Shown one piece after another: positions 114 through 22,089 of a stretch of DNA of 64,000 nt. The DNA comes from Candidatus Bathyarchaeia archaeon (GTDB lineage: Archaea > Thermoproteota > Bathyarchaeia > Bathyarchaeales > Bathycorpusculaceae). A model generated the notes under the pieces. The model was not told the origin of the DNA. It worked only from the letters and a program-made list of their open reading frames with translations, and searched no databases. A program made the translations under genes and the position numbers. Where the stretch lies: positions 64,001 to 128,000 of the forward strand of contig JAVZLM010000003.1 of assembly GCA_038883775.1 (NCBI GenBank), in the 5' to 3' direction. Position 1 is the first letter of the stretch, and every line of letters starts with the position of its first letter.

Positions 114-238
114 AAGCGTCGATGCTTTACTCCCTTTTTTATGTTATGATGTTTCTGTTGAGGATATAGAGAATTTTTCCAGAAAGCTTTTAAAGTTGTT
201 TTCGGTAATAGGTTTTGGGAGAAAAGGAGAAATTGATA

Positions 239-3200: not shown

Positions 3201-3400
3201 GCGTACCAATAGCATGGCAAATCCTAGGACCCTTCAACGTCACCTACGGCACCCACACCATAGTATTCGAATGCATGGAAGTACCCCACTGGGCATTCAG
3301 ATACAGATGCACGGCCTACGTCAACGCCCTAACAAGCCTGCCAACCCTCGGCGGAGCACAATACTGCCCAGAAATCTACGCAGTATTCGCAATAGAATAA
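239..3400 (+). CDS. Secreted scaffoldin-like protein: two cohesin-like domains, Ca-binding inserts and a C-terminal beta domain; no TM anchor
   Basis: Signal peptide. Cohesin-like patterns (ISIAVVVEDVENLYGFDIRLKW..LEYV; FDISVWL..ISGFDFTVNFNSTLLEAV..GKGILATITFHV). Two DxDxxGxLS loops. ATG 239 preferred over TTG 215 because GGAG lies upstream. Confidence 0.75.
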   Translation: MDIKEKKAYSLLSVLLLLVSFFAAATPVLKAQAPETAVRVFVNAPYQSEMTLGDGVTDVRGTIISIAVVVEDVENLYGFDIRLKWPMEYLEYVDHTFTIPWNTSQTPIDPSPYAGILYAPVSPVPGHGLHLDVGEIWAVMASQAPAPSFYGDGTVFVLRLRLIKQQYAYEGDVELVLNITTHDLAGKVPPGPLIIPHTAYNGRIILKGRAFAYPPLPLLKILPETIKDVKLCENFDISVWLMGEGGVDLDPFWDISGFDFTVNFNSTLLEAVDVKIDPANWWLGFYPGGVWTTAKEIDNVTGRVRIAFMGIPDPSRTPPHDAPHGKGILATITFHVIYESEKYPPPSAPIWLENPLPLALIDLYSENGLINLGSPVSTDWHEIMPAYCKRFGLTFWEDVDGDGRLSPNDQIRLLNKETGKWLPYRVHAVPVTMRVDILPFEYTDEYHEGTTAFTNAWPHPGIGSWTPPTPITEYPPPEGFPPVNISLTYLAQEVHSVEVLFPNGTRRLLNYGTEWDYYPGTNLVEIKMILGTPETEYFVEDVNMTTGWEGYVPKARVLLDPPPTGWIHRIRVQFPEEIPPEYLDLWDGFQGEYIELLPWKISGGYLWMNMWGEPGWDYNWAYHYAPNVGVVAIAPWDKFPPGTEVWIDYFAQSTQIWVNYTALELEPRWIKSAIGAADFPFTAPLTSEWTEIMPNFDKEHVITGWTDTDVNGRLSIGDIIQLYDVETGETKPANITLLATGLTVIQKPVICTFDLEDPFYGMVAIVDVAGFPHPERPMCPWHNQPYAVPIPHKTEPATYTAPFKPPGRWIDLYLWGIEACNGTRWEYADFAKGLGPNEPADAVQPQAKVVLRAFVTYNFQPIAGKSVTFELISPTGEFHIIRSAITGGWDTPLYGIAEVIVTIPWPYPDPEGRVFGTWNVIATVDIVKVVINDTLTFRLGYLIDTVFVIPGKQTYHKGEHMNFTLTYTSISHQIRTAYFTIVVYDELGVPIAWQILGPFNVTYGTHTIVFECMEVPHWAFRYRCTAYVNALTSLPTLGGAQYCPEIYAVFAIE
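948..1108 (+). repeat. 161-bp near-identical block shared with 7393-7553
   Basis: Direct comparison shows only about 3 mismatches. Further shared blocks at about 1265-1585 / 7710-8030 and about 2205-2640 / 8970-9400. Confidence 0.9.
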
Positions 3401-4559: not shown

Positions 4560-4642
4560 CCTTCCTTAGTGTTTGAATGGAATTTAATTCCAAAATCTTT
4601 ATACGGTATCGCGCTCGATATTGTTATGGGAGAGGGGGAAAT

Positions 4643-6562
4643 ATGCAAAAAAGGAAAATTTTACAATTTTTGTTTTTCTTTCTGATGCTGATTATATGTT
4701 TTGTTTTCGAGGAAGTTTCGATATACGCTAAAGAAAGCGTTTCTTTTTCAGCTGAGAGTGAAAAGCCACTAGTTTATGTGGATCCGCCGGAGGTTCGAAA
4801 CTTGGCTGTTGGTAAAACTTTTACGATTAGTGTTAAAATCGCTAATGTTACAAACCTTTACGGCGTTGACATTGAGTTTCACTGGAACCCGACAATTTTA
4901 GAATATATGGAACATACTGTTTTGATTCCAGTGGACGATTATCCCGGCGGCGTTTTATATAAGCCCATTATGCCGATTGCAAATACGGTGAATGCCACTG
5001 GTGGAACATATAAGGTTGCTTATGCTTCCATGCTTCCTGCACCATCATTTGACGGAAGTGGAACAGTTTTCACGATGAAGTTTAAAGTGAAGAGCATAGG
5101 ACGCTCTTTATTGGACATTTATACGAGTGATTTGTCTGGAAAAGTTCCTCCGGGACCACTTATCATATACCATGATGTTCAAGATGGATACTTTTCTAAT
5201 TATGTTCCTTCGAAAGCGAAAATTTACATAAATCCTCCAAAAATAATAGATTCAACCTTAACGCCCACATCCAATTTCACAGTAAACGTAAACCTTGAAA
5301 ACGTAGTTGAATTTGACACCTTCGAATTTTGGATAAACTATAACACGACAATTTTAGACGCCTTTAATGTCACGGTTAACCCAACATTTCCAGCGGCACA
5401 AACCAATTTACAAATTATGGAAGCAGAAGGCAAAATTCGAACCAAAGCTTGGCTTCAACCAGCATCCCCACCCTACACGGGCAATCTAATGCTTGCGTCA
5501 ATAATATTTAAAGTGGCAGATATTGGCGCGAGCACTCTCGACTTGTATAATATTACGTTAGTGGATGCATGGAAAGAAAATATTCCATATCAAGAACCTG
5601 GAGACGGCTTTTTCAGTAACATGTTATTAACAAAGCTTTTTATTGATCCTAGCGAAATCATTGACCCCACGATACGTCCACCCATGACTTTCAATATTTA
5701 TGTTAAAGCTGAAAATGTTATGGATATGTATGGTTACGAGTTCAAACTATCTTATGATACAAACGTTTTAACTGCTTTAGGCGTTAGGATTCTTCCGCCA
5801 ACAAATGATACGAGCTTCACTGTTACTACAAGTATTGACGACCCATCGGGCTACATATGGATTAAAGTTCAATATTATCCGCCAGCCGTGCCCATCACTA
5901 TAACTTCCGCAAAAGCATTAGTGGAGTTGTTGTTCCAAGTTCAATCGTTAGGAGTTACCGTTCTCGACTTGCATGATGAGAGGCTTACAGACGTAAATGG
6001 CAACCAAATCCGCGTAGACGAGGTTGGAGATGGCTTCTTTATGTCTATTATAAGAAATGTTGCTATTTTAAATGCTACAGCCACTCCGAACAAAGTTTAT
6101 CCTGGAAGGATGGTTACAATAACTGTTTTGGTGAAAAACTTGGGCATTGGAATGAGTGAAACATTCAATGTGACCGTTTACTATGACAACAACCCGATTG
6201 CAACACAGATCGTCGCAGACCTTGCTCCCCAACACGAAACGACATTGACGTTTTTGTGGGATACCACCGGCTTACAGCCATGCAACAATTATACAATAAG
6301 GGCTGAAGCAAGCCAGGTTCCATTCGAGGTTAATTTGGAGGACAATATTTACTTTGATGGTTGGGTGAAAATTAAAATATGGGGCGATGTGGATGGCGAC
6401 GGAGATGTTGACATTTATGATATCGCCCTGGCGTCAGCAGCCTATGGAAGCCGTCCCGGAGATCCAAACTGGAATCCAGAGGCGGATGTTGCACCGGAAT
6501 GGGGCTTCATCAATATTTATGATATGGTGACAATTTCGTCTTATTATGGACAGACGTGTTAG
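4643..6562 (+). CDS. Adaptor scaffoldin-like protein: three cohesin-like domains, CARDB-like domain, C-terminal dockerin
   Basis: Three repeats of the (V/I)xPP..F(T/N)(I/V)x(V/I)..NV..YG.(F/E)..(W/Y)(N/D)..(I/V)L pattern. CARDB-like RNVAI..ITVLVKNLG..ETFNVTVYY. Dockerin WGDVDGDGDVDIYD..DVAPEWGFINIYD. ATG 4643 follows GGAGAGGGGG. Confidence 0.8.
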   Translation: MQKRKILQFLFFFLMLIICFVFEEVSIYAKESVSFSAESEKPLVYVDPPEVRNLAVGKTFTISVKIANVTNLYGVDIEFHWNPTILEYMEHTVLIPVDDYPGGVLYKPIMPIANTVNATGGTYKVAYASMLPAPSFDGSGTVFTMKFKVKSIGRSLLDIYTSDLSGKVPPGPLIIYHDVQDGYFSNYVPSKAKIYINPPKIIDSTLTPTSNFTVNVNLENVVEFDTFEFWINYNTTILDAFNVTVNPTFPAAQTNLQIMEAEGKIRTKAWLQPASPPYTGNLMLASIIFKVADIGASTLDLYNITLVDAWKENIPYQEPGDGFFSNMLLTKLFIDPSEIIDPTIRPPMTFNIYVKAENVMDMYGYEFKLSYDTNVLTALGVRILPPTNDTSFTVTTSIDDPSGYIWIKVQYYPPAVPITITSAKALVELLFQVQSLGVTVLDLHDERLTDVNGNQIRVDEVGDGFFMSIIRNVAILNATATPNKVYPGRMVTITVLVKNLGIGMSETFNVTVYYDNNPIATQIVADLAPQHETTLTFLWDTTGLQPCNNYTIRAEASQVPFEVNLEDNIYFDGWVKIKIWGDVDGDGDVDIYDIALASAAYGSRPGDPNWNPEADVAPEWGFINIYDMVTISSYYGQTC

Positions 6563-6683: not shown

Positions 6684-9600
6684 ATGATGAATAATTTATG
6701 GAAAAAACTGAGTAACTGCTTATGGATTTCGTTGATTATTTCAGCGATGCTTTTATCCAATGTTCATGTGATGGCAGGAAATGAATATTCAATTCAGCAG
6801 GCACCAACAAAAGTGAGGGTAATACCCTCGCCTATAGAATTTAAAGGAGGAAACGCTACAGGTCAAGAGTTTGATGTTGCGGTTGTTGTTGAAAATGTAA
6901 CCAACCTTTATGGCATTGATATCAATATGACCTGGGATATAACATACCTTGAGTATGTCAGCCACGAATTCACAATGCCAGTAACCGACTATCCAAATCC
7001 CATTCCTCCAAGCCCCTATCCAGGAATTTTAAATGGTCCATTAATAACCACCATCGAAGATGTTAACCCAACCGCAGGTTACATAAGAGTTGGTAAGGCT
7101 ACAATGGCCCAACCTCCGCCTCCATCATTCAACGGAAACGGCACAGTCTTTGTTGTTAAATTTAGAGTGAAATATCATCCGCAAGAAGCTGACACAGTGA
7201 CTTATCTACATTTGGCCTCAACAGATTTGGCTGGCAAAATGCCGCCTGGGCCTCTTATTATACCCCACGAGCGTCAAGACGGTGTAGTTATTTTACGCTC
7301 CTATTTTGAGTATCCACCAATGCCATTATTAGATTTGAGAATAAACGGAGATAAGGAATACAATGCTATAAGAATAGGCGAGCGCTTTAACGTTAGTGTT
7401 TGGCTTATGGGTGAGGGCGGCGTTGACTTGGACCCATTCTGGGACATAAGCGGCTTCGACTTCACAGTAAACTTCAACTCAACCCTCCTAGAAGCGGTCG
7501 ACGTCAAAATCGACCCAGCCAACTGGTGGCTAGGCTTCTACCCAGGCGGAGTCCAAGTCTTTGCGGAGTCTATTGATAACACAGTGGGCAGAGTTAAAAT
7601 AGCCTTCATCGGCTTGCCTGACCCAACGCAAACGCCGCCTCATGATCCTCCGAATGGTAAGGGTGTTTTAGCCATCGTGACTTTTCACGTTATTTATGAG
7701 TCTGAGACGTATCCTCCGCCTTCTGCGCCCATATGGCTTGAAAACCCGCTTCCACTAGCCCTCATAGACCTCTACAGCGAAAACGACCTAATAAACCTCG
7801 AAACTCCAGTCTCAACAGACTGGCATGAACTCACCCCCACATACTGCAAACACTTCAATGTTACTTTCTGGGAGGATGTTGATGGCGACGGGCGCCTCAG
7901 CCCCAACGACCAAATCCACCTATTAGACAAAGAAACAGGCAAGTGGCTTCCCTACCGGGTCCACGCCGTCCCAGTAACCATGCGCGTTGACATCCTACCC
8001 TTCGAATACACAGACGAATACCACGAAGGAACAACAATATTCACCAACACGTGGCCGCCATATCATGCGCTTCTAAGTGGGCTAAAGCTTGATCCCGCGT
8101 ATCCCGTTATAACTTGGCCGCCAACATACGTTCCAGTGAACCTTACGCTGTCTTATGCAGCTTTGGACGTAAGCTCCGTTGAGGTTGAATTTCCAAATGG
8201 TACAAGAAGGCTGTTAACCGAAAACACTGAATGGGAATGGTTCTACGGGTCAGATCAACTTGAAATCAAAATACCGCTTGGCGTGCCAAAATCCTGCGCC
8301 TTCGTTGAGGGCGTCAACATGACAACAGGCTGGGAAGGCTACGTTCCGAAAGGCAGAGTTATACTCCCAGACCAAACAACAGGCTGGATTCACCGATTCG
8401 TCGTCACACCAGTCAAAGACAGAATAGACCTTTACGTAACCATAGTTGACAGCGCCGAATTTAATGTCACAAGAACCTATGCCATATACCTCAACGAAAC
8501 ACTAATAGAAACAGGAGAGCTAACCTATCTTGGAGAGCCAATAGAGCTATACACGGTCATAAATGACATAGACCCCGGATACTACGTCTTAAACTTCACC
8601 TTAGACAGTCCAGACGACAAACCATGGAGCGTAGAAATTTATGGAGCACTTTTCTACTCATATGAGGACGAATTCTACACAGAAGGCAACGTAACGATAT
8701 CATCTCCACTAACAGTCGATTTCACTGCGGATCCACCAACCTTAACCGTGCTTCCATTAGGCGAGCGGGGCGGCTACCTATGGATGAACATAGATGCTGA
8801 TGGAGACGGCGACGCTGAACCAGGATGGTACTGGAACATGGGATACGACTATGCCCCAAACAACCCAGTTGTTGCCATCGCCCCAACATGGACTGGAACA
8901 GAACCAACAGACAGATTCCCGTTAGGAACAGTTGTTACAATAGATTATATGGCTGAATGCACAAAAATGTGGGTTAACTACACAGCCATCGAGCCTACTA
9001 AATGGATTAAATCCGCAATAGGCGCAGCTGACTTCCCATTCACTGCACCATTAACAACCGAATGGAAAGAACTAATGCCATATCCAGACAAGCAACATGT
9101 TATAACTGGCTGGACTGACACAGACGGCAACCACCGCCTAAGCATAGGCGACATAATCCAACTCTACGACGTGGAAACTGGCGAAACCAAACCCGCCAAC
9201 ATAACACTACTGGCAACAGGCCTAACCGTAATCCAAAAACCAGTCATCTGCCTCGCCGACACATCAGACCCATTCTACGGCCAAGTAGCAATAGTGGACG
9301 TGGCCGGCTTCCCCCACCCAGAAAGACCCATGTGCCCATGGCACAACAAAGCCTACTCAGTCCCCATCCCCCACAAAACAGAACCAGCCACATACACAGC
9401 GCCCACACGGGGACCAATAGCGAATTTCACTTATACCCCAAGCGAACCAGTGCAATTTGAAGAAATAACATTCGACGCTTCTCTAAGCTATTCTCCAGCT
9501 AACAAGACAATTGTCAGTTATGTTTGGGATTTTGGTGACGGTTCTCCAGTTGTTGTTGAATCGGATCCAATAACAACCCATGCATACCTCAGTTCAGGAG

Positions 9601-10649
9601 ACTTCCTTGTAAGTTTAATTGTAACAGATGAAGACTACGTGAATAGCTCCGCCTTTGTCGTCAGCATACATGTGGCTAGTTGGCCATCACCAGTAGCTAA
9701 CTTCACTTACTCGCCTACCATGCCAATAGAATGTGAAACTTTAATTTTCGATGCTTCTCTAAGCTATTCTCCAATGGGCGCTGAAATTGTCAGTTATGTT
9801 TGGGATTTTGGTGACGGTTCTCCAGTTGTTGTTGAATCGGATCCAATAACAACCCACGCATACGCATACGCGGGTTCGTATAAAGTCACCCTTACCGTAA
9901 AAGATCTATACAACAGTACCAACAGCATTTCGACTCACCTGCTTATCACTCGTGGTTTTGCAGCCCTAAACGTTGAAACAGATGTTGGCTCGATCTATTT
10001 TGTAGGAGAACTAGCAGAGTTCCGATTCCTAGTAAGCTTCCTGGGCGAACCTAGTAACGCAACGAAACTTAGCGCCAAGTTGTATGGGCCGAATAAACAA
10101 ATGATAGCAAAATACGTTTATCCAACCAATATCACTTTGTTCGCCACTGGAGTATACAGCATCACTTATGAAGTAGGTGCCGCTGCGGGGGTATACACAT
10201 TAGTTGTTGAGGTTGAATATTCTTCGCTCAAGGCAAGCGGACTTAAAAGTTTTCTAGTAAGCGCTACTCTAAACAATTGGGATGCCATAATAACGGACAT
10301 AAAAGATGAAATAGCGACCGTTGTTGTGCCAACCCTTGGAGAAATCAAGCTAAACTTGACTTCCATCAACGCAACATTATCTAATCTAATAGTTAATAGT
10401 AAAGGTGAAATCCTTGCAGAACTAGACACTGCATTAGGTTCGATAACCGCTAAGTTAAATACAATCAACACAGCCATAACTGCCATTGATGGCAACGTTG
10501 TAGACATCAAAACTTCTGTGGGCGACATACAAGCAACTCTCGGCGGGTTACAATCAACACTAACACTTGGTTTAGCAGCAACAGCGATACTCTCCATTAT
10601 AGCAGTATTATTAGCTGCTCTAATCTTGTTAACATTGAAAAAGAAATAA
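6684..10649 (+). CDS. Membrane-anchored scaffoldin-like protein: two cohesin-like domains, inserts, two PKD domains, coiled-coil stalk, C-terminal TM
   Basis: Paralogous to 239-3400. Two SYVWDFGDG PKD motifs, heptad-rich stalk, C-terminal TM plus KKK. Start taken at MMNNLW, ahead of the signal peptide. Confidence 0.78.
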   Translation: MMNNLWKKLSNCLWISLIISAMLLSNVHVMAGNEYSIQQAPTKVRVIPSPIEFKGGNATGQEFDVAVVVENVTNLYGIDINMTWDITYLEYVSHEFTMPVTDYPNPIPPSPYPGILNGPLITTIEDVNPTAGYIRVGKATMAQPPPPSFNGNGTVFVVKFRVKYHPQEADTVTYLHLASTDLAGKMPPGPLIIPHERQDGVVILRSYFEYPPMPLLDLRINGDKEYNAIRIGERFNVSVWLMGEGGVDLDPFWDISGFDFTVNFNSTLLEAVDVKIDPANWWLGFYPGGVQVFAESIDNTVGRVKIAFIGLPDPTQTPPHDPPNGKGVLAIVTFHVIYESETYPPPSAPIWLENPLPLALIDLYSENDLINLETPVSTDWHELTPTYCKHFNVTFWEDVDGDGRLSPNDQIHLLDKETGKWLPYRVHAVPVTMRVDILPFEYTDEYHEGTTIFTNTWPPYHALLSGLKLDPAYPVITWPPTYVPVNLTLSYAALDVSSVEVEFPNGTRRLLTENTEWEWFYGSDQLEIKIPLGVPKSCAFVEGVNMTTGWEGYVPKGRVILPDQTTGWIHRFVVTPVKDRIDLYVTIVDSAEFNVTRTYAIYLNETLIETGELTYLGEPIELYTVINDIDPGYYVLNFTLDSPDDKPWSVEIYGALFYSYEDEFYTEGNVTISSPLTVDFTADPPTLTVLPLGERGGYLWMNIDADGDGDAEPGWYWNMGYDYAPNNPVVAIAPTWTGTEPTDRFPLGTVVTIDYMAECTKMWVNYTAIEPTKWIKSAIGAADFPFTAPLTTEWKELMPYPDKQHVITGWTDTDGNHRLSIGDIIQLYDVETGETKPANITLLATGLTVIQKPVICLADTSDPFYGQVAIVDVAGFPHPERPMCPWHNKAYSVPIPHKTEPATYTAPTRGPIANFTYTPSEPVQFEEITFDASLSYSPANKTIVSYVWDFGDGSPVVVESDPITTHAYLSSGDFLVSLIVTDEDYVNSSAFVVSIHVASWPSPVANFTYSPTMPIECETLIFDASLSYSPMGAEIVSYVWDFGDGSPVVVESDPITTHAYAYAGSYKVTLTVKDLYNSTNSISTHLLITRGFAALNVETDVGSIYFVGELAEFRFLVSFLGEPSNATKLSAKLYGPNKQMIAKYVYPTNITLFATGVYSITYEVGAAAGVYTLVVEVEYSSLKASGLKSFLVSATLNNWDAIITDIKDEIATVVVPTLGEIKLNLTSINATLSNLIVNSKGEILAELDTALGSITAKLNTINTAITAIDGNVVDIKTSVGDIQATLGGLQSTLTLGLAATAILSIIAVLLAALILLTLKKK
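9509..9856 (+). repeat. 72-bp exact intragenic repeat (9509-9580 / 9785-9856) in PKD domains
   Basis: aattgtcagttatgtttgggattttggtgacggttctccagttgttgttgaatcggatccaataacaaccca occurs twice. Confidence 0.9.
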
Positions 10650-10753
10650 CCTTCAACACCCCACTTTTATTTTTCAATTTTTTAACTCTTAAATAAGAAA
10701 AGCTTAAAAATTAAGCTTCAACATAGTGGTAACACAAATTGCATGGTGAAAAC

Positions 10754-13700
10754 ATGATTAAAAATTGTTTAAAAACTTTCATATTTATTATGCTTCTGTT
10801 TAGCATAAATCTGGGAACCGTTAAAGATGTTTTTTCGGGCACCTCACCAAAAAGCGTTATAGATTATCCCATAGAATCCGTAGAGCATGAACTTATAGTA
10901 AATTGGATAACTCCACCTCAAGATCTTAATCTTAGAGAATCAACTATTATAAAAGTTAGCGTAACTAACAGCGGCTTAGAAAACGAGAGTGATGTGCAAT
11001 TATCTCTTTCAATTAACGATAGTATTGTTGCTTCCAAAACTTTTCCGTTGTTAATTGCAGGTTCTATGGGCACTTTGGAGTATGAATGGACTCCTGCTGT
11101 GGAGGGACAATACAATGTTACTGCTTATTCACTACCAGTAGTTAATGAAACAGACACAGCAAACAATGTTGTGTCTAAAATAGTTCAAGTTTGTCGTGTT
11201 GTTGTTTGTGTAGAACCAGAAACGGTCACGGCGAATGTAAACGAAACCTTCACTATTAACGTGAAAATTGCTAACGTTACGAGACTTTTTGGTTTCGACA
11301 TTCAATTCCGCTGGAGTCCAATAACTCTAAAATATGTCAGTCATAAGGTTAAAGTGCCAAAGGGTTCAACCTATCCTGACGGCATTCTTTACGGCTCTCC
11401 ATTAATAATTAAAAATATGGTGAACGAATCTGGAGTATCTGAGGCTTCTCCAGGAACTCTCTTTTGGCTCTCTGTTGTTTCTTTTGGCACTTCTTTGTCG
11501 TTTAATGGAACAGGAATAGCATTCAATATGACTTTTAAAGTATTGCAAAAAGGCGAATGTGACATATACTTTACATCCGTGGATCTTTCCGATAAGAAAG
11601 GAAAGTCGATTCCCCATGAAGTTAGAGACGGCTACTTTTACATGGAAGGATTAGGCTCTGTGCCCGTGGCTAACTTCACTTGTTGGCCGTCGAAGCGTGT
11701 GGATAGCGTAGATTGCGTTGTTGTTGGTAAGTCTGTTGTTTTTAATGCTTCTTTGAGTTATGATCCTGATGTGGGTGGCGGAATTACCTTGTACATGTGG
11801 GATTTTGGTGATGGAACACGTTTAAACACAACTGAATCCCTCATAAACCACACATATGCTGCAGAGAAAACTCGAAATCCTGTTTCCTTAACCGTTGTGG
11901 ATGTTGAGAATTCAACAAGTAGGCTGTTTTATCGGTTAATAGATATTGTTAACCCAAAGCCTGTGGCTAGATTCACGGTTTGGCCTCCTGATGGACACCC
12001 GGTTGTTGGTAAGTCTGTTGTTTTTAATGCTTCTTTGAGTTATGATCCTGATGTGGGTGGCGGAATTACCTTGTACATGTGGGATTTTGGTGATGGAACA
12101 CGTTTAAACACAACCGAACCCCTCATAAACCACACATATTTGGAAGTTACTGGTATAAGTGCACGTGTAGTGCGGTTAGTTGTCAAGGACGCTGAAAACC
12201 TTACAAGCGAACCGGCCACTTTCTCTTTGTATGTTATAGGCTCGCGTGACGTTAACGTAAAGAATGTTGAAGTATATCCAACCTTGGTTATGCCTGGAGA
12301 TGTTGTGGTTGTTAACGCTACCATAGCTAGTTTGGTAACACAATCAGCGTATAATTTTACAATGGGCTTTGATGTAAAGGTGTTTTGGACAGATTATAGT
12401 GAAATCATGCAAGGTGTGATTGATCAGAAAAAGGTTGAATTGGCCACAAACGTTAGCAAAATTTTTACTTTCTCTTGGAACACAACGGGCATGTCCGAAG
12501 GAGCTTATTGGGTTTGGGTTGAAGCCCTAAATGTTCCTCACGAAGATGATTTTACTAATAATATTTGGCGCAGTTCTGAGGCTGTTAATGTTACATTGAG
12601 AGAGGTTCACGATGTGGCGATTAAAGATTTAACCCTAGCTGTTAGTGTTGAAACAAAGGAATTTGCGCCGCCGGCGATTGTTGGAGAGAATGTAACTATG
12701 CGCGTTTATGTTATGGCAAATGGCACTGTTTCAGAGACTTTTAACGCCACTTTAAGAGTGATGGACTCGGAAGGTGAAGTTTTGTTTAGCAAAATTTGGC
12801 TTAATGAAGGTTTAGCAGCGCGAGAGACAAAGGAGTTAAAGTGCGTGTTTAACACGGAGGATGCGGCTGCTGGTAAGTATATAGTTTCTGTTAACGTCAC
12901 AATTGCGGAGGTGGATGAGCATCCTGATGATAACCTTAGAAGTGTGGAATTTAGAATTATTAGGTCTCCATTTTTATTAGTTGAACCCTTGCCGAGCCTC
13001 ATAGTTGTAGGAGATACCGTTGTTTTTAATGCTTCTGCCAGTTATCATTTAGACGGGGCTATTGTAGGGTATAGATGGGAGTTTTTTGACCCTAATGGAT
13101 TTCTTAGGCGTGTGGAAACAAGTAAAGCTGTTGTTAACTTTACATTCCCTGAGCAAGGTGGTGTTGGGGTATGGGTTATTAAGTTGATCGCGGAGGATAA
13201 TTATACAATAACTTACGGTGCTGATAGGCCCTTGACTGAGCCTTACCGCAAGGTTTTTGAGGTGAATGTTAAAGGAGCCAGTGTTATAGCTCTTCAGCTT
13301 AATCCAGCAACTATACAATATGGTCAATCCATCATTATAAATGGAACGTTAACGCCGCCCAGAGAAGGCGTGAATGTTACTGTTAGGGTTAATGGTACTG
13401 TTTTGGCTACAGTGTTAACTGGTGATATGGGCAACTTTACAATTACTTGGAAGCCAGACAAAGCTGGAACCTACCTAATCGAGGCATCTTGGCCTGGCGA
13501 TGCTGAAACGGCTCCTTCGGCAGATGAAAAAATCTTGATAGTTAGTAAAGCAGTGAGCAGTATAACTTTAAATGTTTCTCCTTCAACGGTTTCTGTTGGG
13601 GAAAATGTTATCATAAGCGGGGTTCTTTCTCCAGAGGAAATCGGAGCTCATGTGAATGTTACTGTTAGGGTTAATGGTACTGTTTTGGCTACAGTGTTAA

Positions 13701-13933
13701 CTGGTGATATGGGCAACTTTACAATTACTTGGAAGCCAGACAAAGCTGGAACCTACCTAATCGAGGCATCTTGGCCTGGCGACGCCAATTCTCTTCCATG
13801 CTCATCGGGACAGCGGCTTGTGAAGGTTGAAGCTCCACAGTTTAATGTTATGCCTTATGTTGCAGTTGCAATAGTAGCAATAATTGTTGTTGCATTAGCC
13901 GTATATCTTGTCAAGTTTAGAAAGAGAGGGTGA
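10754..13933 (+). CDS. Membrane-anchored surface protein: CARDB, cohesin-like, PKD and Ig-like domains, C-terminal TM
   Basis: Cohesin-like FTINVKIANVTRLFGFDIQFRW..FNGTGIAFNMTFKV..IPHEVRDGYF. YMWDFGDG x2. Duplicated Ig-like unit. TM plus KFRKRG. Confidence 0.78.
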   Translation: MIKNCLKTFIFIMLLFSINLGTVKDVFSGTSPKSVIDYPIESVEHELIVNWITPPQDLNLRESTIIKVSVTNSGLENESDVQLSLSINDSIVASKTFPLLIAGSMGTLEYEWTPAVEGQYNVTAYSLPVVNETDTANNVVSKIVQVCRVVVCVEPETVTANVNETFTINVKIANVTRLFGFDIQFRWSPITLKYVSHKVKVPKGSTYPDGILYGSPLIIKNMVNESGVSEASPGTLFWLSVVSFGTSLSFNGTGIAFNMTFKVLQKGECDIYFTSVDLSDKKGKSIPHEVRDGYFYMEGLGSVPVANFTCWPSKRVDSVDCVVVGKSVVFNASLSYDPDVGGGITLYMWDFGDGTRLNTTESLINHTYAAEKTRNPVSLTVVDVENSTSRLFYRLIDIVNPKPVARFTVWPPDGHPVVGKSVVFNASLSYDPDVGGGITLYMWDFGDGTRLNTTEPLINHTYLEVTGISARVVRLVVKDAENLTSEPATFSLYVIGSRDVNVKNVEVYPTLVMPGDVVVVNATIASLVTQSAYNFTMGFDVKVFWTDYSEIMQGVIDQKKVELATNVSKIFTFSWNTTGMSEGAYWVWVEALNVPHEDDFTNNIWRSSEAVNVTLREVHDVAIKDLTLAVSVETKEFAPPAIVGENVTMRVYVMANGTVSETFNATLRVMDSEGEVLFSKIWLNEGLAARETKELKCVFNTEDAAAGKYIVSVNVTIAEVDEHPDDNLRSVEFRIIRSPFLLVEPLPSLIVVGDTVVFNASASYHLDGAIVGYRWEFFDPNGFLRRVETSKAVVNFTFPEQGGVGVWVIKLIAEDNYTITYGADRPLTEPYRKVFEVNVKGASVIALQLNPATIQYGQSIIINGTLTPPREGVNVTVRVNGTVLATVLTGDMGNFTITWKPDKAGTYLIEASWPGDAETAPSADEKILIVSKAVSSITLNVSPSTVSVGENVIISGVLSPEEIGAHVNVTVRVNGTVLATVLTGDMGNFTITWKPDKAGTYLIEASWPGDANSLPCSSGQRLVKVEAPQFNVMPYVAVAIVAIIVVALAVYLVKFRKRG
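11720..12114 (+). repeat. 113-bp exact intragenic repeat (11720-11832 / 12002-12114), PKD core
   Basis: Identical DNA encoding VVGKSVVFNASLSYDPDVGGGITLYMWDFGDGTRLNTT. Confidence 0.9.
13370..13782 (+). repeat. 131-bp exact intragenic repeat (13370-13500 / 13652-13782), Ig-like domain
   Basis: Identical DNA encoding VNVTVRVNGTVLATVLTGDMGNFTITWKPDKAGTYLIEASWPGD. Confidence 0.9.
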
Positions 13934-13990: not shown

Positions 13991-14386
13991 ATGTTTCATA
14001 AAAAATTGTATAAGTGGATTTGTTTAATTTTAGGTTTTGTGGGAATGATTAATGTGGCTACTGTGGGGCTTTATTTGGTTGTAACATGCCTTAGTTTGTC
14101 TCCTTTTCCAGGGGGCGAACATTTTCTTTTTTATGCTTATGCGGCAGCTATTTTAGCGGTTGTTTCCATGTTGCTTCTGGTTTGTGGTATTTGCTTGATG
14201 TGGAGAGGGCGTTTGCGGATGGGAGGCGCATTTAATTTTTTTGCTGGAGTATTTTTTGTTTCCTTTTACTTTTACTTTTCATTTTTTTCTCAACCGTCGA
14301 TGCTTGGATGGTTTTGGCCTTTTGGTTGTTTGCTTTTTCTTCCATTATTTTTGAGTGGCGTTATTGGAATGTTTGTTAAAGGTTAA
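13991..14386 (+). CDS. Hypothetical four-TM membrane protein
   Basis: 131 aa with four hydrophobic segments. GGAGG-like SD upstream. Confidence 0.65.
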   Translation: MFHKKLYKWICLILGFVGMINVATVGLYLVVTCLSLSPFPGGEHFLFYAYAAAILAVVSMLLLVCGICLMWRGRLRMGGAFNFFAGVFFVSFYFYFSFFSQPSMLGWFWPFGCLLFLPLFLSGVIGMFVKG

Positions 14387-14420: not shown

Positions 14421-14434
14421 AGAAAACCTTAAAT
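14421..14434 (+). promoter_or_regulatory. BRE-TATA promoter of the solute-binding protein gene
   Basis: agaaaaccttaaat. Near-identical aaaccttaaata at 16915-16926 and 20026-20037; related boxes at 181-194 and 10696-10710. Confidence 0.55.
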
Positions 14435-14480: not shown

Positions 14481-16871
14481 ATGAATTCGAAAAAAGTTGC
14501 TTTGATGTTTGTATTGTCGCTGGTTCTCTTTGCTTCTTTAATGGTTCATTCGTCTCCTAGGAAGGTTGCATTGGCTGCCGAGGTTCAGAAGGGACCGCGG
14601 GCTCCAGAGTTTCAGATGATTCTTAAGGCTACGACTGAGGCTGCTTATGCCTCTTTGGTTGCTGGTGAACTTGAGTATATAGGCGGTTTGCTTCCAGCCC
14701 AATTTGAGGATGCTCAGAGGCGTCCCGAAATAACAACTTATCTCGAACTTATTTATAGCATGCAAGATGAAGCCATTATGAGCAACTATTCCATGCCCTC
14801 TCAGAAGTCTCATCCTAACGCTCCACCAGGCTCCAGCGGAATCCTCCGCAGTCCAACAAACGATGTGAACTTTAGGAAGGCTGTAAACCACCTGTTCAAC
14901 AAGGACTGGATCTGCGAAACCGTTTGGAAGGGGCTTGTTGAAAGAATTGATGTGCCAATTGCTGCCCCATCCAAGGGTTGGATGAACACAAGCTGCTTCA
15001 ACCTTTACCCATTCAGCTTTGAACAGGCAATAGCCAAACTCACGGACCCAGCCGTTTACGGAAGCGCTCAAAACGGCTGGTACGACTACGACGGAGACGG
15101 CATAAGAAACTATCCTCTTGACTGGCCGGGCGTTCAAGGCCAACCAGGCGTTAGAGACGAGCCAAACATGCTTCCACTTCAGTACTGGATTTACGACGAC
15201 CCACCGCAGAGATACGAGTTCGCCCACAACGTGGCAGAAAACCTAAGAAGCATAGGCATCCCAGTAGATGAGCACGTTGCACCCTTCCAGCTTATAAACG
15301 ACCAGTGCTTCTGCGCCTACGATTACCACCTAAGCTCAGACGGTTGGGCTGTGGGAAGGTTCCCAACATACATACAATTCTTCTTCGACAGTGAACTGTG
15401 GATTCCAGGATATTGTGGAGCCAACTGCTACACAGGTGGCAATGAGCCTTGGACTGCTGAGATAGACGAGGCTGTTAGGGCTGTAAGGTATGCTGCAACC
15501 CCAGAGGATAGCAGAGTAGCATGCCTTTACGCTCAGTGGCTGCTTGTGGACAAGTGGGCTGTTGGCATGATTCCGCTTTACACGCCTAAGGCTGCATACG
15601 CCGTTAGAAACGTTTTGGGCGCCGTCAAATTCTTCGGAGCATCGCCCTTCAACGAGTTAGCCATGATGAACATGTTCCGAATTGACGATCCAAACGCCCC
15701 AATAAGGATGGGATTCGACTTCCCACCAAACGTTAACACGATCTACTGCATGTGGGCTGTGGGCTACACAATAATGCAGATGACATGGGAATTCCCAATG
15801 CAGCTTAACCCATTAGACCCCATGTATGAGATGCCTTGGGGCGCCATAGACTGGGACGTAGGAACATGGGTTGATCCCGCTGACGGCAAAACAAAAACTG
15901 TCACCAAATGGTGGTTTAGGCCAGGAACCAAATACATAGCGCCGGTAACAGGAGAACCCTTAGACGACTTCACTGCGGCATCAAACATTTTCGGAATGTG
16001 GTACGTCTATCAGACGACAGATGCCTGGTGGTGGAGCGACTTCAGAGACCTCCACCACATAAGAGTAGACCCAACAAACCCATACTACTTCGAAATATAC
16101 TTCAACAGGTTCAGCTGCTGGTTCTACTTGGATACGCCCTATTCCACAAACTTGGGAATCTACCCGCCAGCCTACAAGGTTTATCCGCTATGCGACAACC
16201 CAGACCACACGTACACAAGCGGGCAACCAGTAGACCCAATAGTTAGAGTGTTCGTTGAAGGCGAAAATATGTCGACTCCAGGCGACTTGGCATTGCCATG
16301 GCAAACGAAATATGCGCCAGTAGAAATAGTCTCCATAGTACAGCAGGGCGTTGGCCCACTAAAGCCGTCAGACACAACGGGCAATTATGACTACGAAATG
16401 GTTAAGGGCAAAATCCACATATACAAAGACCTGCCAAACGGAGCAGTAATAACAGTCACATACTACGGCAGAGGAGAAGCCTACGGCACAACACCAGGAG
16501 ACATTCCATGGGACAAAATCTTCATAGGAGCAGGAAAATGGTACATGACCTACTTAGACCTACTGGCAGGCGCATACTTTAAGGCTAACAGAAACTACTG
16601 GGCTGAAACTCCGCCATTAGGCGAAACAGACTGGTACTACTGGAGAATTGAAGGACCCAAACCAAGAAAAGGCTACTTCCAAATCAACATATATGACGTG
16701 GTAGTAGCCACAGGCGCCTACGGAACCCAAGGCAGATACACCCCAGACCCAGCCTTCACAGTATCCGCAGACCTAGCCCCATCAGCCGACGGCCTAGGAG
16801 GCAAAATAGACATCTACGACGTAGTCACCATAACAGGAAGCTACGGAACCAAATTCTGGGAAATCAAATAA
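14481..16871 (+). CDS. oppA: Oligopeptide/dipeptide ABC transporter solute-binding protein (family 5) with C-terminal dockerin
   Basis: SBP5 motifs (PTNDVNFRKAVNHLFNKDWI; AENLRSIGIPV; IGAGKWY..ANRNYW). Directly upstream of oppBC. Ends in INIYDVVVATGAYG..ADLAP..GGKIDIYDVVTITGSYG. Confidence 0.85.
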   Translation: MNSKKVALMFVLSLVLFASLMVHSSPRKVALAAEVQKGPRAPEFQMILKATTEAAYASLVAGELEYIGGLLPAQFEDAQRRPEITTYLELIYSMQDEAIMSNYSMPSQKSHPNAPPGSSGILRSPTNDVNFRKAVNHLFNKDWICETVWKGLVERIDVPIAAPSKGWMNTSCFNLYPFSFEQAIAKLTDPAVYGSAQNGWYDYDGDGIRNYPLDWPGVQGQPGVRDEPNMLPLQYWIYDDPPQRYEFAHNVAENLRSIGIPVDEHVAPFQLINDQCFCAYDYHLSSDGWAVGRFPTYIQFFFDSELWIPGYCGANCYTGGNEPWTAEIDEAVRAVRYAATPEDSRVACLYAQWLLVDKWAVGMIPLYTPKAAYAVRNVLGAVKFFGASPFNELAMMNMFRIDDPNAPIRMGFDFPPNVNTIYCMWAVGYTIMQMTWEFPMQLNPLDPMYEMPWGAIDWDVGTWVDPADGKTKTVTKWWFRPGTKYIAPVTGEPLDDFTAASNIFGMWYVYQTTDAWWWSDFRDLHHIRVDPTNPYYFEIYFNRFSCWFYLDTPYSTNLGIYPPAYKVYPLCDNPDHTYTSGQPVDPIVRVFVEGENMSTPGDLALPWQTKYAPVEIVSIVQQGVGPLKPSDTTGNYDYEMVKGKIHIYKDLPNGAVITVTYYGRGEAYGTTPGDIPWDKIFIGAGKWYMTYLDLLAGAYFKANRNYWAETPPLGETDWYYWRIEGPKPRKGYFQINIYDVVVATGAYGTQGRYTPDPAFTVSADLAPSADGLGGKIDIYDVVTITGSYGTKFWEIK

Positions 16872-16958: not shown

Positions 16959-17951
16959 ATGGGCTTCAAAACCTACCTAGTTAAAAGGACCATATATAGC
17001 CTAGCACTTTTATGGGCTATAATGTCAGTAAACTTCATAATCTTCTCCCTTATACCAGGAGACCCAATCGGCAGATGGGTTAAAAACCAAGAGGCAGCCA
17101 TATCAAAAGAAGAAATAATGGAGTTAAGGCGAATCTACGGGCTGGATATGCCACTCCACGAAAGATACTTCTTGTATCTTCAAAACATGTTAACATGGAA
17201 CTTTGGAAGATCACGATACACACAAGCAGACATAAAAACAGACATAATGAATAGACTTGGAAACACCCTCTTACTCTTGGGAATAGCAGACGGCTTCACA
17301 ATATTTGCCGGAACATTGTTAGGCGTATTAGTTGCATACAAAAGAGGCTCAAAATTAGACACAGCATTAGTCACAGCCTCCCTAGGCACATACAGCCTAC
17401 CAGTCTTCTGGTTAGGATGGCTAATACTCTTCTTTTTCGCCATATACCTAAAATGGTTCCCAGTTGGGGGAATATACCCAGCCGAATGGATGAAACAGTG
17501 GCCCACAAGCATAGTAGAAATAATTGCTGGAAGACTGAAACACATAGTCCTCCCAGTTTTAACCCTTTTCATCTTTAACGTAGGCGGATGGCTACTATTA
17601 ACAAGGTCATGCGTACTCGAAGCCATAACCGAAGACTACGTAGTAACAGCAAGGGCAAAGGGATTAAGCACAAGAAAAGTCTTGTTAAACCACGTCTTAA
17701 GAGTTGCATCCCTACCAATCGTCACATCTCTAGCTTTAACATTAGCTGGACTTTGGAGCGGCGCAATTGTAACCGAAACCGTTTTCAGTTATGAGGGAAT
17801 GGGAAGGTGGATTTGGAGGGCCATCGGATTACAAGACATACCAATCATGTACGTTGTTTTCTACATATCCGCCCTCACAATAATCATTGCCAACTTCATG
17901 GCAGACCTCATTTATGGAGTATTAGATCCAAGAATAAGAGTCGGGGGATAA
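16959..17951 (+). CDS. oppB: Oligopeptide ABC transporter permease
   Basis: YGLDMPLHERY, DYVVTARAKGL EAA loop, ETVFSYEGMG, LDPRIR. Confidence 0.93.
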   Translation: MGFKTYLVKRTIYSLALLWAIMSVNFIIFSLIPGDPIGRWVKNQEAAISKEEIMELRRIYGLDMPLHERYFLYLQNMLTWNFGRSRYTQADIKTDIMNRLGNTLLLLGIADGFTIFAGTLLGVLVAYKRGSKLDTALVTASLGTYSLPVFWLGWLILFFFAIYLKWFPVGGIYPAEWMKQWPTSIVEIIAGRLKHIVLPVLTLFIFNVGGWLLLTRSCVLEAITEDYVVTARAKGLSTRKVLLNHVLRVASLPIVTSLALTLAGLWSGAIVTETVFSYEGMGRWIWRAIGLQDIPIMYVVFYISALTIIIANFMADLIYGVLDPRIRVGG

Positions 17952-17953
17952 AC

Positions 17954-19573
17954 ATGGCCACATACAAAGAGAGAGCAGCCTTCACACTTAAAAGACTAAA
18001 AAATTTCTGGAGGGATTTCTCCAGAAGCAAAAGAGGAGTCCTAGGAGTTGTCATCATACTATTCTACATTATAGTAGCCTTAATAGGTCCACTATTCATA
18101 ACAATTGACCCCCTCTTTCCAACAATGCCAGGATACTACCCAGCAGGCCCAGCTCCAATAGCTGATGTTCTATGCAAACCCACATGGTACAAGTACTTTC
18201 CAGGCAGAAGCGGCATGTCAGAAAACATGAAGTTAATATCAGATCACGAGTTCTCCTCAATCAAAGCAATGGAGGCTTGGGATCAAAAGACTAACGCTCC
18301 AAACTTAATAAGCTATGCATATAACCCAACAGCGGGATCCCACAACAACGACGGATGCATCGAAATATCCTATAACCGCCCAGCCGATTACACTAGCACT
18401 GAAACACCATACCTTCAAATAACCCACAACTTTACCTATCCATACCAGGAAAGCCCAAGAAAATTCTGGATACACCTCTCCTTCCTCCTCAACGGCACAA
18501 TAACAAGGGAAAGTTACGTGTCAATAGAAGTATCATTTTACAGAATTCAAACCCCCCCACCGCCATTAAATTATACGTACCCAAGTTCTCTAACAACGTA
18601 CATAGACTCATTAATAATTTACAAATACCCACTACATAGCATAAATACAACTAGTCCCTCCGCAACCTGGACTCACATGTGGATCACCTCAACCAGAGAC
18701 AGCATAATGTACGATCCAAAATACTACCTCAAACCATGCGCCATCATATTTCCAACATCAGGCAATTACACATTTGAAATTAAAGTAAGCTTTTACGACA
18801 CAGCAACCACTGAAAGAGAAATAAAAGTTTATCTCGACAATTTAGACGTGCTAATTTACGGAGAAGCCTACGGCATACTCGGAACAGACTATAAGACAGG
18901 AGGCCCAAGAGACAACCTAATATCCCTCGTATACGGCGCAAGAATCTCAATATTCGTCGGTTTACTCGCAACCTTTATCTCCGTCAGCCTCGGCTTACTC
19001 GTAGGATTAACAGCAGGATACGTTGGAGGATTAGGCGACGAAGCACTAATGAGACTTGCAGACTTCCTCATGTGCCTCCCAGGCTTGCCATTATATATTG
19101 TGCTGATGGTAGTCTTAGGAAGCTCCATATGGAACGTAATATTACTCATGTCCTTCCTTGGATGGATGGGTTTCTCACGCCAAATAAGATCCATGACCCT
19201 ATCATTACGCGAAAGAGCCTTCGTTGAAGCCGCCAAGGCCGCCGGAGCAGGCAAAGTCTGGATCCTATTTAAGCATATTCTCCCAAACGTCTTCGCGCTA
19301 GTTTACATAGCATTAGCAGTTTCAGTTCCAGGAGTTGTATTAACAGAAGCAACATTAAGTTGGCTCGGACTATTCGATCCAAAACAAATATCATGGGGAA
19401 GAATGCTTCACGAATTCTCCCAAGCAGGTGTTGCAGTTGCAAGAGGCATCGAAGATTACTGGTTCTGGGTGATTCCACCAGGCATAGCCATCGCCTTATT
19501 AGCGATAGCCTTCGTGTTGCTCGGCTACTCTTTAGATGAAATATTAAATCCCAAGCTTAGAGTAAGACGTTAA
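17954..19573 (+). CDS. oppC: Oligopeptide ABC transporter permease with a large extracellular insert
   Basis: LGTD..LVYGARISI, FVEAAKAAGA, HILPN, SWGRML, LDEILNPKLR. About 230 aa insert after TM1. Start at MATYKE. Confidence 0.9.
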   Translation: MATYKERAAFTLKRLKNFWRDFSRSKRGVLGVVIILFYIIVALIGPLFITIDPLFPTMPGYYPAGPAPIADVLCKPTWYKYFPGRSGMSENMKLISDHEFSSIKAMEAWDQKTNAPNLISYAYNPTAGSHNNDGCIEISYNRPADYTSTETPYLQITHNFTYPYQESPRKFWIHLSFLLNGTITRESYVSIEVSFYRIQTPPPPLNYTYPSSLTTYIDSLIIYKYPLHSINTTSPSATWTHMWITSTRDSIMYDPKYYLKPCAIIFPTSGNYTFEIKVSFYDTATTEREIKVYLDNLDVLIYGEAYGILGTDYKTGGPRDNLISLVYGARISIFVGLLATFISVSLGLLVGLTAGYVGGLGDEALMRLADFLMCLPGLPLYIVLMVVLGSSIWNVILLMSFLGWMGFSRQIRSMTLSLRERAFVEAAKAAGAGKVWILFKHILPNVFALVYIALAVSVPGVVLTEATLSWLGLFDPKQISWGRMLHEFSQAGVAVARGIEDYWFWVIPPGIAIALLAIAFVLLGYSLDEILNPKLRVRR

Positions 19574-19576
19574 ACC

Positions 19577-19957
19577 TTAACCTTTACTCAAAGAATCTAT
19601 TTTTTCATCTAAAAATCTCCAAAAATCATCCTCAATTTTTTCCAAAGCCTCTAAAGACTTCAAACCTTTCGATAAAAACCATCCACCGCCCAAAAATGAT
19701 GTCAACCAGCCAAACTTAACAAACGAACGAGAACGCCTTCCAGCCTCAAAAACCACCAAGAAATCATCAGGTTTCCCTCTAATAAAAACTTCAATGTGTT
19801 CGCATAAGTCATGAATGCGCCTAGGAGCTGCTGTAATCTTATACTCTTCCGATGAACACTGCATATTCGTCAAAAAACCCCTATGCTTAAAGAAACCCTC
19901 TAAAACTTCACACAGCAACTTTAAGTTAATATTTTTTCGAATCCACCGACTCTGCAT
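19577..19957 (-). CDS. Hypothetical protein
   Basis: 126-aa ORF filling the oppC-oppD gap on the opposite strand. GAGG upstream. Confidence 0.65.
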   Translation of the reverse strand: MQSRWIRKNINLKLLCEVLEGFFKHRGFLTNMQCSSEEYKITAAPRRIHDLCEHIEVFIRGKPDDFLVVFEAGRRSRSFVKFGWLTSFLGGGWFLSKGLKSLEALEKIEDDFWRFLDEKIDSLSKG

Positions 19958-21093: not shown

Positions 21094-22089
21094 ATGAGCG
21101 AAACAATAGTTAAAGTAGTAAATTTGAAAAAATGGTTTCCTGTAAAATTGGGTTTCTTTAAAACATTAGTTTCCCGCAAGCAACTTTATGTTCGCGCGGT
21201 AGACGGCATAAACTTAGAAATAAAAAAGGGAGAAATTTTTGGACTTGCAGGCGAAAGTGGGAGTGGAAAGACCACTACAGGACGGTTACTTGTTAAACTT
21301 ATTGAACCAACATCCGGACAAATTTTCTTTGGTGATAAAGATGTAACTAACCTTCCAGAAAGCCAATTTAAGCCTTTCCGTCAAAAAATACAAATAATTT
21401 TCCAAGATCCATATGAGTCGCTTAATCCTAGAATGACAATTTTTGACATTATAGCTGAACCTTTACGCCTTCAAGCTGGTTTAAGCGGATCTGAACTTGA
21501 TGAAAAAGTTTTCAAAGTCTTAACCGACGTAGGTTTAGTTCCGCCTCATGAGTTCATTTTTAGATTCCCCCACGAGTTAAGCGGAGGACAAAGGCAACGA
21601 GTGGCTACGGCGAGAGCTTTATCGCTGAGTCCAGATTTCATAGTTGCTGACGAACCAGTGTCAATGTTAGATGTATCTATCAGAGCAGAAGTTTTAAATT
21701 TAATGTTCGATTTAATGAAGAAGTACCATGTGTCTTTCCTTTACATCACACATGATTTAGCATTAGCTCGACACATCTGCGACGAAATAGCTATAATGTA
21801 TCTTGGTAAAATCATGGAAAAGGGACCTACAGAAAAAGTCATTTATGAACCTTTGCATCCCTACACAAAAGCCCTAATATCAGCTGTTCCTGTTCCTGAC
21901 CCATCATCAAAACGAGCGGAAATAGTGATAAAAGGAGAAATTCCAAGTCCAGTTAACCCACCCCCAGGCTGCAGATTCCACACAAGATGTCCAGAATACA
22001 TTGGCGACGTGTGTAGAACAAAAGAGCCAACGCTTATAAATGTGGGAAAGGCTCATTATGTTGCATGCCATTTATACTCTAAACCTTAA
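21094..22089 (+). CDS. oppF: Oligopeptide ABC transporter ATPase
   Basis: GESGSGKT, FQDPYESLNPR, LSGGQRQR, VADEPVSMLDVS, GCRFHTRC. Confidence 0.95.
   Translation: MSETIVKVVNLKKWFPVKLGFFKTLVSRKQLYVRAVDGINLEIKKGEIFGLAGESGSGKTTTGRLLVKLIEPTSGQIFFGDKDVTNLPESQFKPFRQKIQIIFQDPYESLNPRMTIFDIIAEPLRLQAGLSGSELDEKVFKVLTDVGLVPPHEFIFRFPHELSGGQRQRVATARALSLSPDFIVADEPVSMLDVSIRAEVLNLMFDLMKKYHVSFLYITHDLALARHICDEIAIMYLGKIMEKGPTEKVIYEPLHPYTKALISAVPVPDPSSKRAEIVIKGEIPSPVNPPPGCRFHTRCPEYIGDVCRTKEPTLINVGKAHYVACHLYSKP

Follow-up and report, generated by a model that had tools for sequence, protein, structure and literature searches.

Solute-binding proteins (SBPs) of ATP-binding cassette (ABC) transporters, of the NikA/OppA as well as the TroA type, are common among the dockerin-bearing proteins of anaerobic methanotrophic (ANME) archaea, which also possess proteins with up to five cohesins, according to Chadwick et al. 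(2022, PMC9012536). Timmers et al. (2017, PMC5244752) give no more than counts of these domains. The idea of an archaeal SBP held by a dockerin is not new, since these ANME cases are in print as genomic inference (PMC9012536). For Bathyarchaeia, a literature search that did not extend to subscription journals returned no paper on dockerin-bearing SBPs. Here we describe one from a Bathyarchaeia archaeon, encoded in a stretch of 64,000 nucleotides (nt) that we refer to as the window (assembly GCA_038883775.1, contig JAVZLM010000003.1, positions 64,001 to 128,000 of the forward strand). The gene at 14481..16871 encodes the family-5 SBP (SBP5) of an Opp/Dpp-type ABC importer and heads an oppBCDF operon; as judged from sequence alignments, its product, P0001, joins a circularly permuted SBP fold to a divergent dockerin homologue. 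Its parts and the operon are as follows, residue numbers being those of P0001 unless otherwise stated.

14481..16871, + strand: oppA-like gene for P0001, 796 amino acids (aa), with predicted signal peptide, circularly permuted SBP5 fold and dockerin-derived C-terminal module
14481..14579, + strand: predicted Sec-type signal peptide, residues 1-33, with a hydrophobic core at 3-26 and without Cys
14598..15665, + strand: first part of the permuted SBP5, residues ~40-395, matching the middle and C-terminal portions of a canonical SBP5 (Pfam ~158-348; residues 248-525 of the E. coli OppA precursor)
15666..16604, + strand: second part of the permuted SBP5, residues ~396-708, equivalent to the canonical N-terminal part and ending in the hairpin motif G.G.Y...N..YW
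16173..16505, + strand: insertion of ~110 aa, rich in beta structure, at residues ~565-675; relatives anchored by a transmembrane (TM) helix lack it
16605..16868, + strand: dockerin-derived module, residues 709-796, with two helix repeats (H737-745, H778-786)
16623..16673, + strand: beta-hairpin insertion in loop 1 of the module, residues 715-731
16959..17951, + strand: oppB, permease
17954..19573, + strand: oppC, permease, with an extracytoplasmic insertion of ~280 aa after the first TM helix
20111..21073, + strand: oppD, ATPase
21094..22089, + strand: oppF, ATPase

The open reading frame (ORF) spans 14433/14481..16871 (+) and has an in-frame alternative ATG at 14433; the ATG at 14481, which is directly preceded by GGAGAAAGAGGTT, is most likely the start codon. 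Pfam SBP_bac_5 (PF00496) matches P0001 with 49.4 bits (cut-off 32.4), residues 51-291 aligning to profile positions 158-348 of 368, and is found in 29/29 aligned family members. The latter come from a word-index search that returned 36 proteins at E<=0.001, seven of which (P0022, P0024, P0027, P0029, P0034, P0035 and P0036) were left out of the alignment. An exhaustive profile search among representatives gave 10,315 proteins at E<=0.001, a number that includes ordinary SBP5 proteins, 1,972 at <=1e-10 and 478 at <=1e-30, while a locus scan with a 14-row alignment identified 43 related loci (83 pattern matches, 52 confirmed). Homologues and related loci originate almost exclusively from Bathyarchaeia metagenome-assembled genomes. 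The AlphaFold2 model of full-length P0001, with a predicted local distance difference test score (pLDDT) of 87.5 and a predicted template modelling score (pTM) of 0.85, has 172 Foldseek matches at E<=0.001, the best being 4oer_A (5.3e-16), with NikA, AppA and OppA among them. These alignments include only 334-379 columns of targets of ~500 residues, with target TM-scores of 0.37-0.50, as expected when a sequential aligner meets a permuted chain.

On the evidence of profile alignments, the SBP5 fold of the P0001 lineage is circularly permuted, its parts following each other in an order other than the canonical one. This had to be demonstrated through less diverged relatives, since single-sequence Pfam searches recovered neither the N-terminal part of SBP5 in the second half of P0001 (residues 400-715) nor any dockerin in residues 705-796. 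In the homologue from locus L011, residues 47-272 align to SBP_bac_5 profile positions 146-362 and residues 418-573, further along the chain, to positions 4-144 (E 6.4e-28); likewise, the second halves of the proteins from L035, L019, L033, L036 and L027 align to positions ~1-146. The P0001 family is collinear with these relatives (global hhalign 100%, E 2e-133), residues 1-708 of P0001 aligning to residues 8-572 of the L011 protein with the ~110-aa insertion of P0001 at about 565-675.

In mature P0001 the chain starts near profile position 158, and its canonical C-terminal region has about 400 further residues behind it. Direct comparisons of P0001 with canonical proteins all place the canonical N-terminal part behind the canonical C-terminal part. 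With phmmer against NikA, query residues 122-199 align to chain residues 255-328, 440-504 to 31-88, and 679-744 to 156-219. In a search of PDB chains with the family profile, positions 34-363 align to chain residues ~190-505 and positions 406-481 to residues 21-96 of HbpA. By hhalign against E. coli OppA, DppA and NikA, query residues 45-382 align to residues 248-525 of E. coli OppA at 96%, with secondary blocks at 451-506 (OppA 83-123) and 680-709 (OppA 210-239). The primary blocks of the PDB-profile and hhalign searches are strong and the secondary matches individually weak, the second half of P0001 reaching E 0.003-0.03 against the three E. coli proteins. The new termini lie just past the conserved G.G.Y...N..YW hairpin, at about residues 239/248 of the E. 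coli OppA precursor, and by virtue of this order the dockerin-like module sits on the new C-terminus. The same literature search found no paper on natural circular permutation of family-5 SBPs, and such a permutation appears to be undescribed so far.

P0001 thus belongs to the fold family of the canonical cluster-C SBPs (OppA, DppA, NikA, AppA; 4oer, 1xoc, 8j5q) and shares their OppBCDF partners, but differs from them by the permuted order, the additional ~110-aa insertion, the C-terminal module, and the absence of a lipid or of periplasmic confinement. Like P0001, the ANME dockerin-SBPs of Chadwick et al. (PMC9012536) join a NikA/OppA-type SBP to a dockerin, and the genomes concerned likewise encode multi-cohesin proteins; their function is proposed from domains alone. 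However, in the one ANME example that we compared (LHMKAEBJ_02597, from S4 Data of that paper), PF00496 matches in one piece, at 134-495 and over 99% of the model, in canonical order and with the SBP on the C-terminal side, whereas P0001 is permuted, carries its dockerin at the C-terminus without a linker, and has a hairpin insertion. New here are the permuted chain order, a linker-less hairpin dockerin throughout a family and, at the new C-terminus, an interchange between TM and dockerin anchoring. The permutation, the linker-less junction and the existence of relatives with an internal module had all been missed by an initial annotation made from the sequence of the window.

That annotation had described a dockerin-like C-terminus with insertions in both calcium loops, and both features hold, although the module starts at nt 16605 and not at 16618. 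The last ~88 residues of P0001 contain two ...I(D/N)IYDVV..G.YG repeats, as do the three other dockerin-bearing ORFs of the window, and follow the SBP5 part directly through a junction without linker, ETPPLGE.D, which is invariant. In comparison with the other dockerins of the window, loop 1 contains a conserved insertion (GE.DW.W...GPKPR.GY), which forms a hairpin in the model (E720-723, E730-734) and whose size differs among relatives, between about 6 and about 35 added residues. Loop 2 exceeds the already atypical DLAPPWG loop of the other dockerins by 3-4 residues. Invariant residues of the module are P, P, L, G, E715, D717, G731, D739, G751, D764, I778 and D780. The window's standard dockerins each combine one canonical loop (DVNGDG type) with an atypical one of 13 residues, A(E/P)PWG.IN.YD, a pattern that recurs in other Bathyarchaeia loci.

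4327-4476: standard dockerin
6509-6559: standard dockerin
25480-25530: standard dockerin

We compared a profile of 19 hairpin modules with one of 19 standard bathyarchaeal dockerins, including the three of the window, and hhalign joined the two over 60 columns at 99.4% (E 1.8e-21; 99.3% and E 2e-20 in a comparable run). The standard profile in turn matches 61 PDB sequences at E<=1, led by the dockerin 2y3n_B from Bacteroides cellulosolvens (4.7e-15) and followed by many cellulosomal dockerins; 16 of the 19 standard dockerins list Pfam Dockerin_1 at E<=1, three of them above the gathering score. Homology to proven dockerins is therefore reached by transitivity, the hairpin modules matching the standard bathyarchaeal dockerins and these matching those of the PDB, and on this sequence comparison the C-terminal module of P0001 is clearly a divergent dockerin homologue. 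With the cellulosomal dockerins it shares the duplicated loop-helix segment, but differs in the loop 1 hairpin of 6 to ~35 residues, in a longer loop 2, in the missing ligands 3 and 5 and in having no linker. In structure prediction, Foldseek ranks 1-12 for the isolated module are all dockerin chains, but at E 0.17-5, with none at <=0.001 and a best target TM-score of 0.52, and the pLDDT of the module folded alone is 71.5, as against 87-92 in the full-length context.

The N-terminal segment and the lack of a C-terminal anchor are as initially annotated. By Kyte-Doolittle scan, residues 3-26 are the only hydrophobic segment of P0001, and its C-terminus is without the hydrophobic helix and basic tail of a TM anchor. 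No Cys occurs upstream of the conserved GPR at the start of the mature protein, and P0001 is accordingly not a lipoprotein of the lipobox type. A class III (pilin-like) or a Tat signal was considered and rejected, as no matching motif was seen by eye. Throughout the family, AxA-like motifs (VKA, VNA, ASA, AKA or ALA) lie 3-8 residues ahead of GPR, for which reason we infer that the signal peptide is cleaved, in P0001 likely by signal peptidase I at ALA|AE.

The comparison of relatives is informative with respect to how such a protein could be retained. All 29 aligned members end in the hairpin module. Among 175 family proteins (fragments included), the hairpin module is terminal in 114 and internal in 25, three proteins have a terminal TM helix, and the remaining 33 show none of these, about 20 of them ending in a standard dockerin. 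The TM-anchored relatives (L011 and L018 from Thermoprotei, L035 from Nitrososphaeria) resemble P0001 in signal, permuted SBP5 and operon, but where P0001 has its dockerin they end in a YtkA/Big-like immunoglobulin-like (Ig) domain, a TM helix and a basic tail. Those of L019, L036 and others have a standard dockerin at the same C-terminus, and L033 looks intermediate, with a DWFWKY hairpin and one canonical loop.

A quick, unrooted tree was computed from 65 rows, after thinning had removed 66 of the 99 hairpin rows and proteins below 600 or above 1000 aa had been excluded. In it, the six TM forms make up one clade (support in the Shimodaira-Hasegawa-like approximate likelihood ratio test, SH-aLRT, 95) within a 31-row clade (100) that is rich in standard dockerins, and the end-module states require 10 changes against 28.1 in shuffles. 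As the TM forms nest among dockerin forms and the states need few changes, the anchor types have been exchanged at the same C-terminal position; the tree being unrooted, we claim no direction for these changes. The initial annotation had called retention of an SBP by a dockerin unusual, a view that can no longer be maintained, given that dockerin-SBPs are common in ANME archaea (PMC9012536) and that the fusion is here family-wide, in hundreds of clusters.

The window also encodes potential partners for the module, with a total of eight cohesins in four proteins, two of which have a C-terminal TM helix:

215..3400, + strand: secreted protein with type A and type B cohesins, without C-terminal TM helix
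3490-4479: further dockerin-terminated ORF
4577..6562, + strand: adaptor-like protein with three cohesins (A, C, C), CARDB and a standard dockerin
6684..10649, + strand: scaffoldin-like protein with type A and type B cohesins, PKD domains, C-terminal TM helix and KKK; candidate docking partner
10739..13933, + strand: scaffoldin-like protein with CARDB, one type A cohesin, PKD/Ig domains, C-terminal TM helix and basic residues
22459..25533, + strand: subtilase S8 with CARDB and a standard dockerin

The type B cohesins of 215-3400 and 6684-10649 share 80% identity. Proteins with tandem type A and type B cohesins adjoin oppA in L004, L007, L008, L015, L016, L022 and L024 as well as in the window, a cohesin occurs within the examined flanks in 16 of the 34 hairpin-class loci, and related loci also contain short TM-anchored proteins with a single cohesin. 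We therefore consider it probable, though by no great measure, that P0001 is an exported, permuted SBP5 held at the cell surface by docking of its hairpin module on a cohesin of a neighbouring scaffoldin. Such tethering is supported by the alternation of TM helix, standard dockerin and hairpin dockerin at the same end and by the recurrence of cohesin neighbours, and this comparative support makes a dockerin tether plausible.

In this mechanism, P0001 would be exported by the Sec pathway and its signal cleaved, so that the mature protein would start at about canonical profile position 146-158 and run to the canonical C-terminus; the ~145 profile positions that are N-terminal in a canonical SBP5 would follow without a break, and the chain would end just past the G.G.Y...N..YW hairpin. 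The new C-terminus would be the site where the lineage hangs its retention device, be it Ig domain and TM helix, standard dockerin or hairpin dockerin. In P0001 the hairpin module would bind a cohesin on one of the scaffoldin-like proteins encoded nearby, of which two are membrane-anchored, and the same scaffold system would carry the dockerin-bearing subtilase. The tethered P0001 would pass oligopeptides, or less likely oligosaccharides, to OppBC.

Several observations weigh against docking on a scaffoldin, and those that concern the module itself would equally fit a different role, in which it is a rigid, non-docking structural cap that seals the site of the new termini, while an uncleaved N-terminal hydrophobic segment retains the protein. 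Dockerins have two calcium loops of 12 residues with ligands at positions 1, 3, 5, 9 and 12. Both loops of the module are lengthened, and neither has an acidic or amide side chain at position 3 or 5; with these ligand positions lost and the insertions present, calcium binding by the module is doubtful. None of the 29 aligned family members matches Pfam Dockerin_1 (PF00404) at E<=1, nor does the module alone, and the profile of 19 hairpin modules retrieves no PDB chain at E<=10. There is no linker ahead of the module, and the invariance of this linker-less junction together with the fall in pLDDT on folding alone suggests that the module is packed rigidly on the SBP body. Behind the 25 internal modules the chain often continues with CARDB, cohesins and a further dockerin, of the standard type, and the occurrence of such modules in proteins with a terminal standard dockerin indicates that the module is kept even where another dockerin could anchor the protein.

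An uncleaved segment would be long enough, its hydrophobic core of 17-24 residues sufficing to span the membrane. Against this stand the family-wide AxA-like motifs and the TM-anchored relatives, which have the same kind of signal in addition to a C-terminal TM helix, so that at least in these the N-terminal signal is not the anchor. Also against a cap, both helices of the module keep the sequence pattern of the working-type dockerins of the lineage. Internal modules also score below terminal ones (median 88.7 vs 107.0 bits, Mann-Whitney U test p 0.003), which is weak evidence because the hidden Markov model was built from terminal forms and relatedness is uncorrected; the lower scores hint at relaxation or partial redundancy when a second dockerin is present. 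All considered, we regard a structural cap with an N-terminal anchor as unlikely, if still to be reckoned with.

The cohesin side has difficulties of its own for docking on a scaffoldin. In 18 of the 34 hairpin-class loci no cohesin is found in the examined flanks, including four loci of one complete genome (L025, L026, L028 and L029). Type B cohesins were also considered as the specific partner and dropped, since their occurrence in 10 of 34 hairpin-class loci against none of six TM/standard loci is not significant (Fisher p 0.31). Furthermore, the cohesins of the TM-anchored scaffoldins of the window are at the far end of proteins of ~1000 aa, a distal position whose geometry makes it awkward to supply a permease in the membrane. 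The substrate adds to these points: no NCBIfam model matches P0001 above its cut-off and the PDB relatives of the family bind ligands as diverse as peptides, nickel, mannosides and chitin oligomers, and for these reasons a substrate cannot be assigned.

The distal cohesins would be no obstacle if P0001 were chiefly a substrate-capturing subunit of a surface complex, with a role like that of a carbohydrate-binding module (CBM) in a cellulosome, and not a shuttle to OppBC. This would also account for relatives in which cohesins, CARDB and additional dockerins are part of the chain (L031, L037, L039, L042, P0024 and others), and for orphan copies without oppBCDF in L026, L028 and L029. However, oppB and oppC adjoin the oppA-like gene in the window and in 23 of the 43 related loci (one further locus has the permeases only), and the operon of the window contains no second, conventional SBP gene. 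We thus find it distinctly improbable that capture is the chief role of P0001.

The fusions deserve mention in their own right: OppA-like proteins joined to CARDB, cohesins and a second dockerin reach up to 1859 aa and are themselves scaffold subunits. They are encoded at L031 8972-13081, L039 227-3847, L037 9896-13240 and L042 9173-13342, and further include P0024, P0027, P0054, P0055 and P0137.

The geometry would likewise be solved if the module docked on the permease itself, namely on the extracytoplasmic insertion of OppC (about residues 55-340 of the product of 17954-19573), tethering P0001 directly. An ordinary OppC has ~300 aa, as against 488-846 aa for every OppC in 24 related loci; the insertion has no Pfam family. 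These lengths do not depend on how the adjacent OppA is anchored, the insertion being equally present beside TM-anchored and standard-dockerin relatives (L011, L018, L035, L019 and L033), so that its presence does not track that of the hairpin module. Nor was any similarity to cohesins detected in it. Docking on OppC therefore appears very improbable to us, and docking on a scaffoldin cohesin is the reading that we retain.

A more far-reaching scheme may be entertained, although we hold it doubtful as a whole: a permuted SBP5 lineage of Thermoproteota would have moved its chain ends so as to hang a retention module on a new C-terminus, and in Bathyarchaeia the hairpin dockerin would plug into a dedicated type B cohesin of the A-B scaffoldins, while the A cohesin would hold dockerin-bearing hydrolases such as the subtilase, giving a surface machine with a direct coupling of extracellular digestion to uptake. 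Should the permutation be true, a natural circular permutation would be added to one of the best-studied folds of transporter receptors, and the permuted SBP5 would be useful for learning where this fold tolerates new termini, as well as for the design of biosensors. If the tethering is true as well, Bathyarchaeia, which are uncultured sediment archaea, would routinely hold nutrient receptors on cohesin-dockerin scaffolds beside secreted proteases and not by lipids or TM helices. The single locus described here supplies a concrete set of candidate dockerin-cohesin pairs.

Further observations were made on the neighbouring genes. The A-B cohesin proteins of the window (215-3400 and 6684-10649) and of L007, L008, L015, L016, L022 and L024 share a long conserved C-terminal region (...AGFPHPER..PW...) that has no Pfam family, and most proteins of this kind have neither a TM anchor nor a dockerin. 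Directly 5' of oppA, 13991-14386 (+) encodes a protein of 131 aa that consists almost entirely of hydrophobic segments; it has no Pfam family and no homologue across the 43 related loci. Adjoining the subtilase gene, 25626-29252 (+) encodes a surface protein of 1208 aa with CBM96, PKD, seven Flg_new_2 repeats and a C-terminal TM helix. Finally, the gap of ~500 nt between oppC and oppD contains a conserved antisense ORF of 126 aa, 19577-19957 (-), without TM segment, Pfam family or NCBIfam family; its homologues occupy the same place in the same orientation in 21 related loci, and it may be a regulator or accessory protein of these opp operons.

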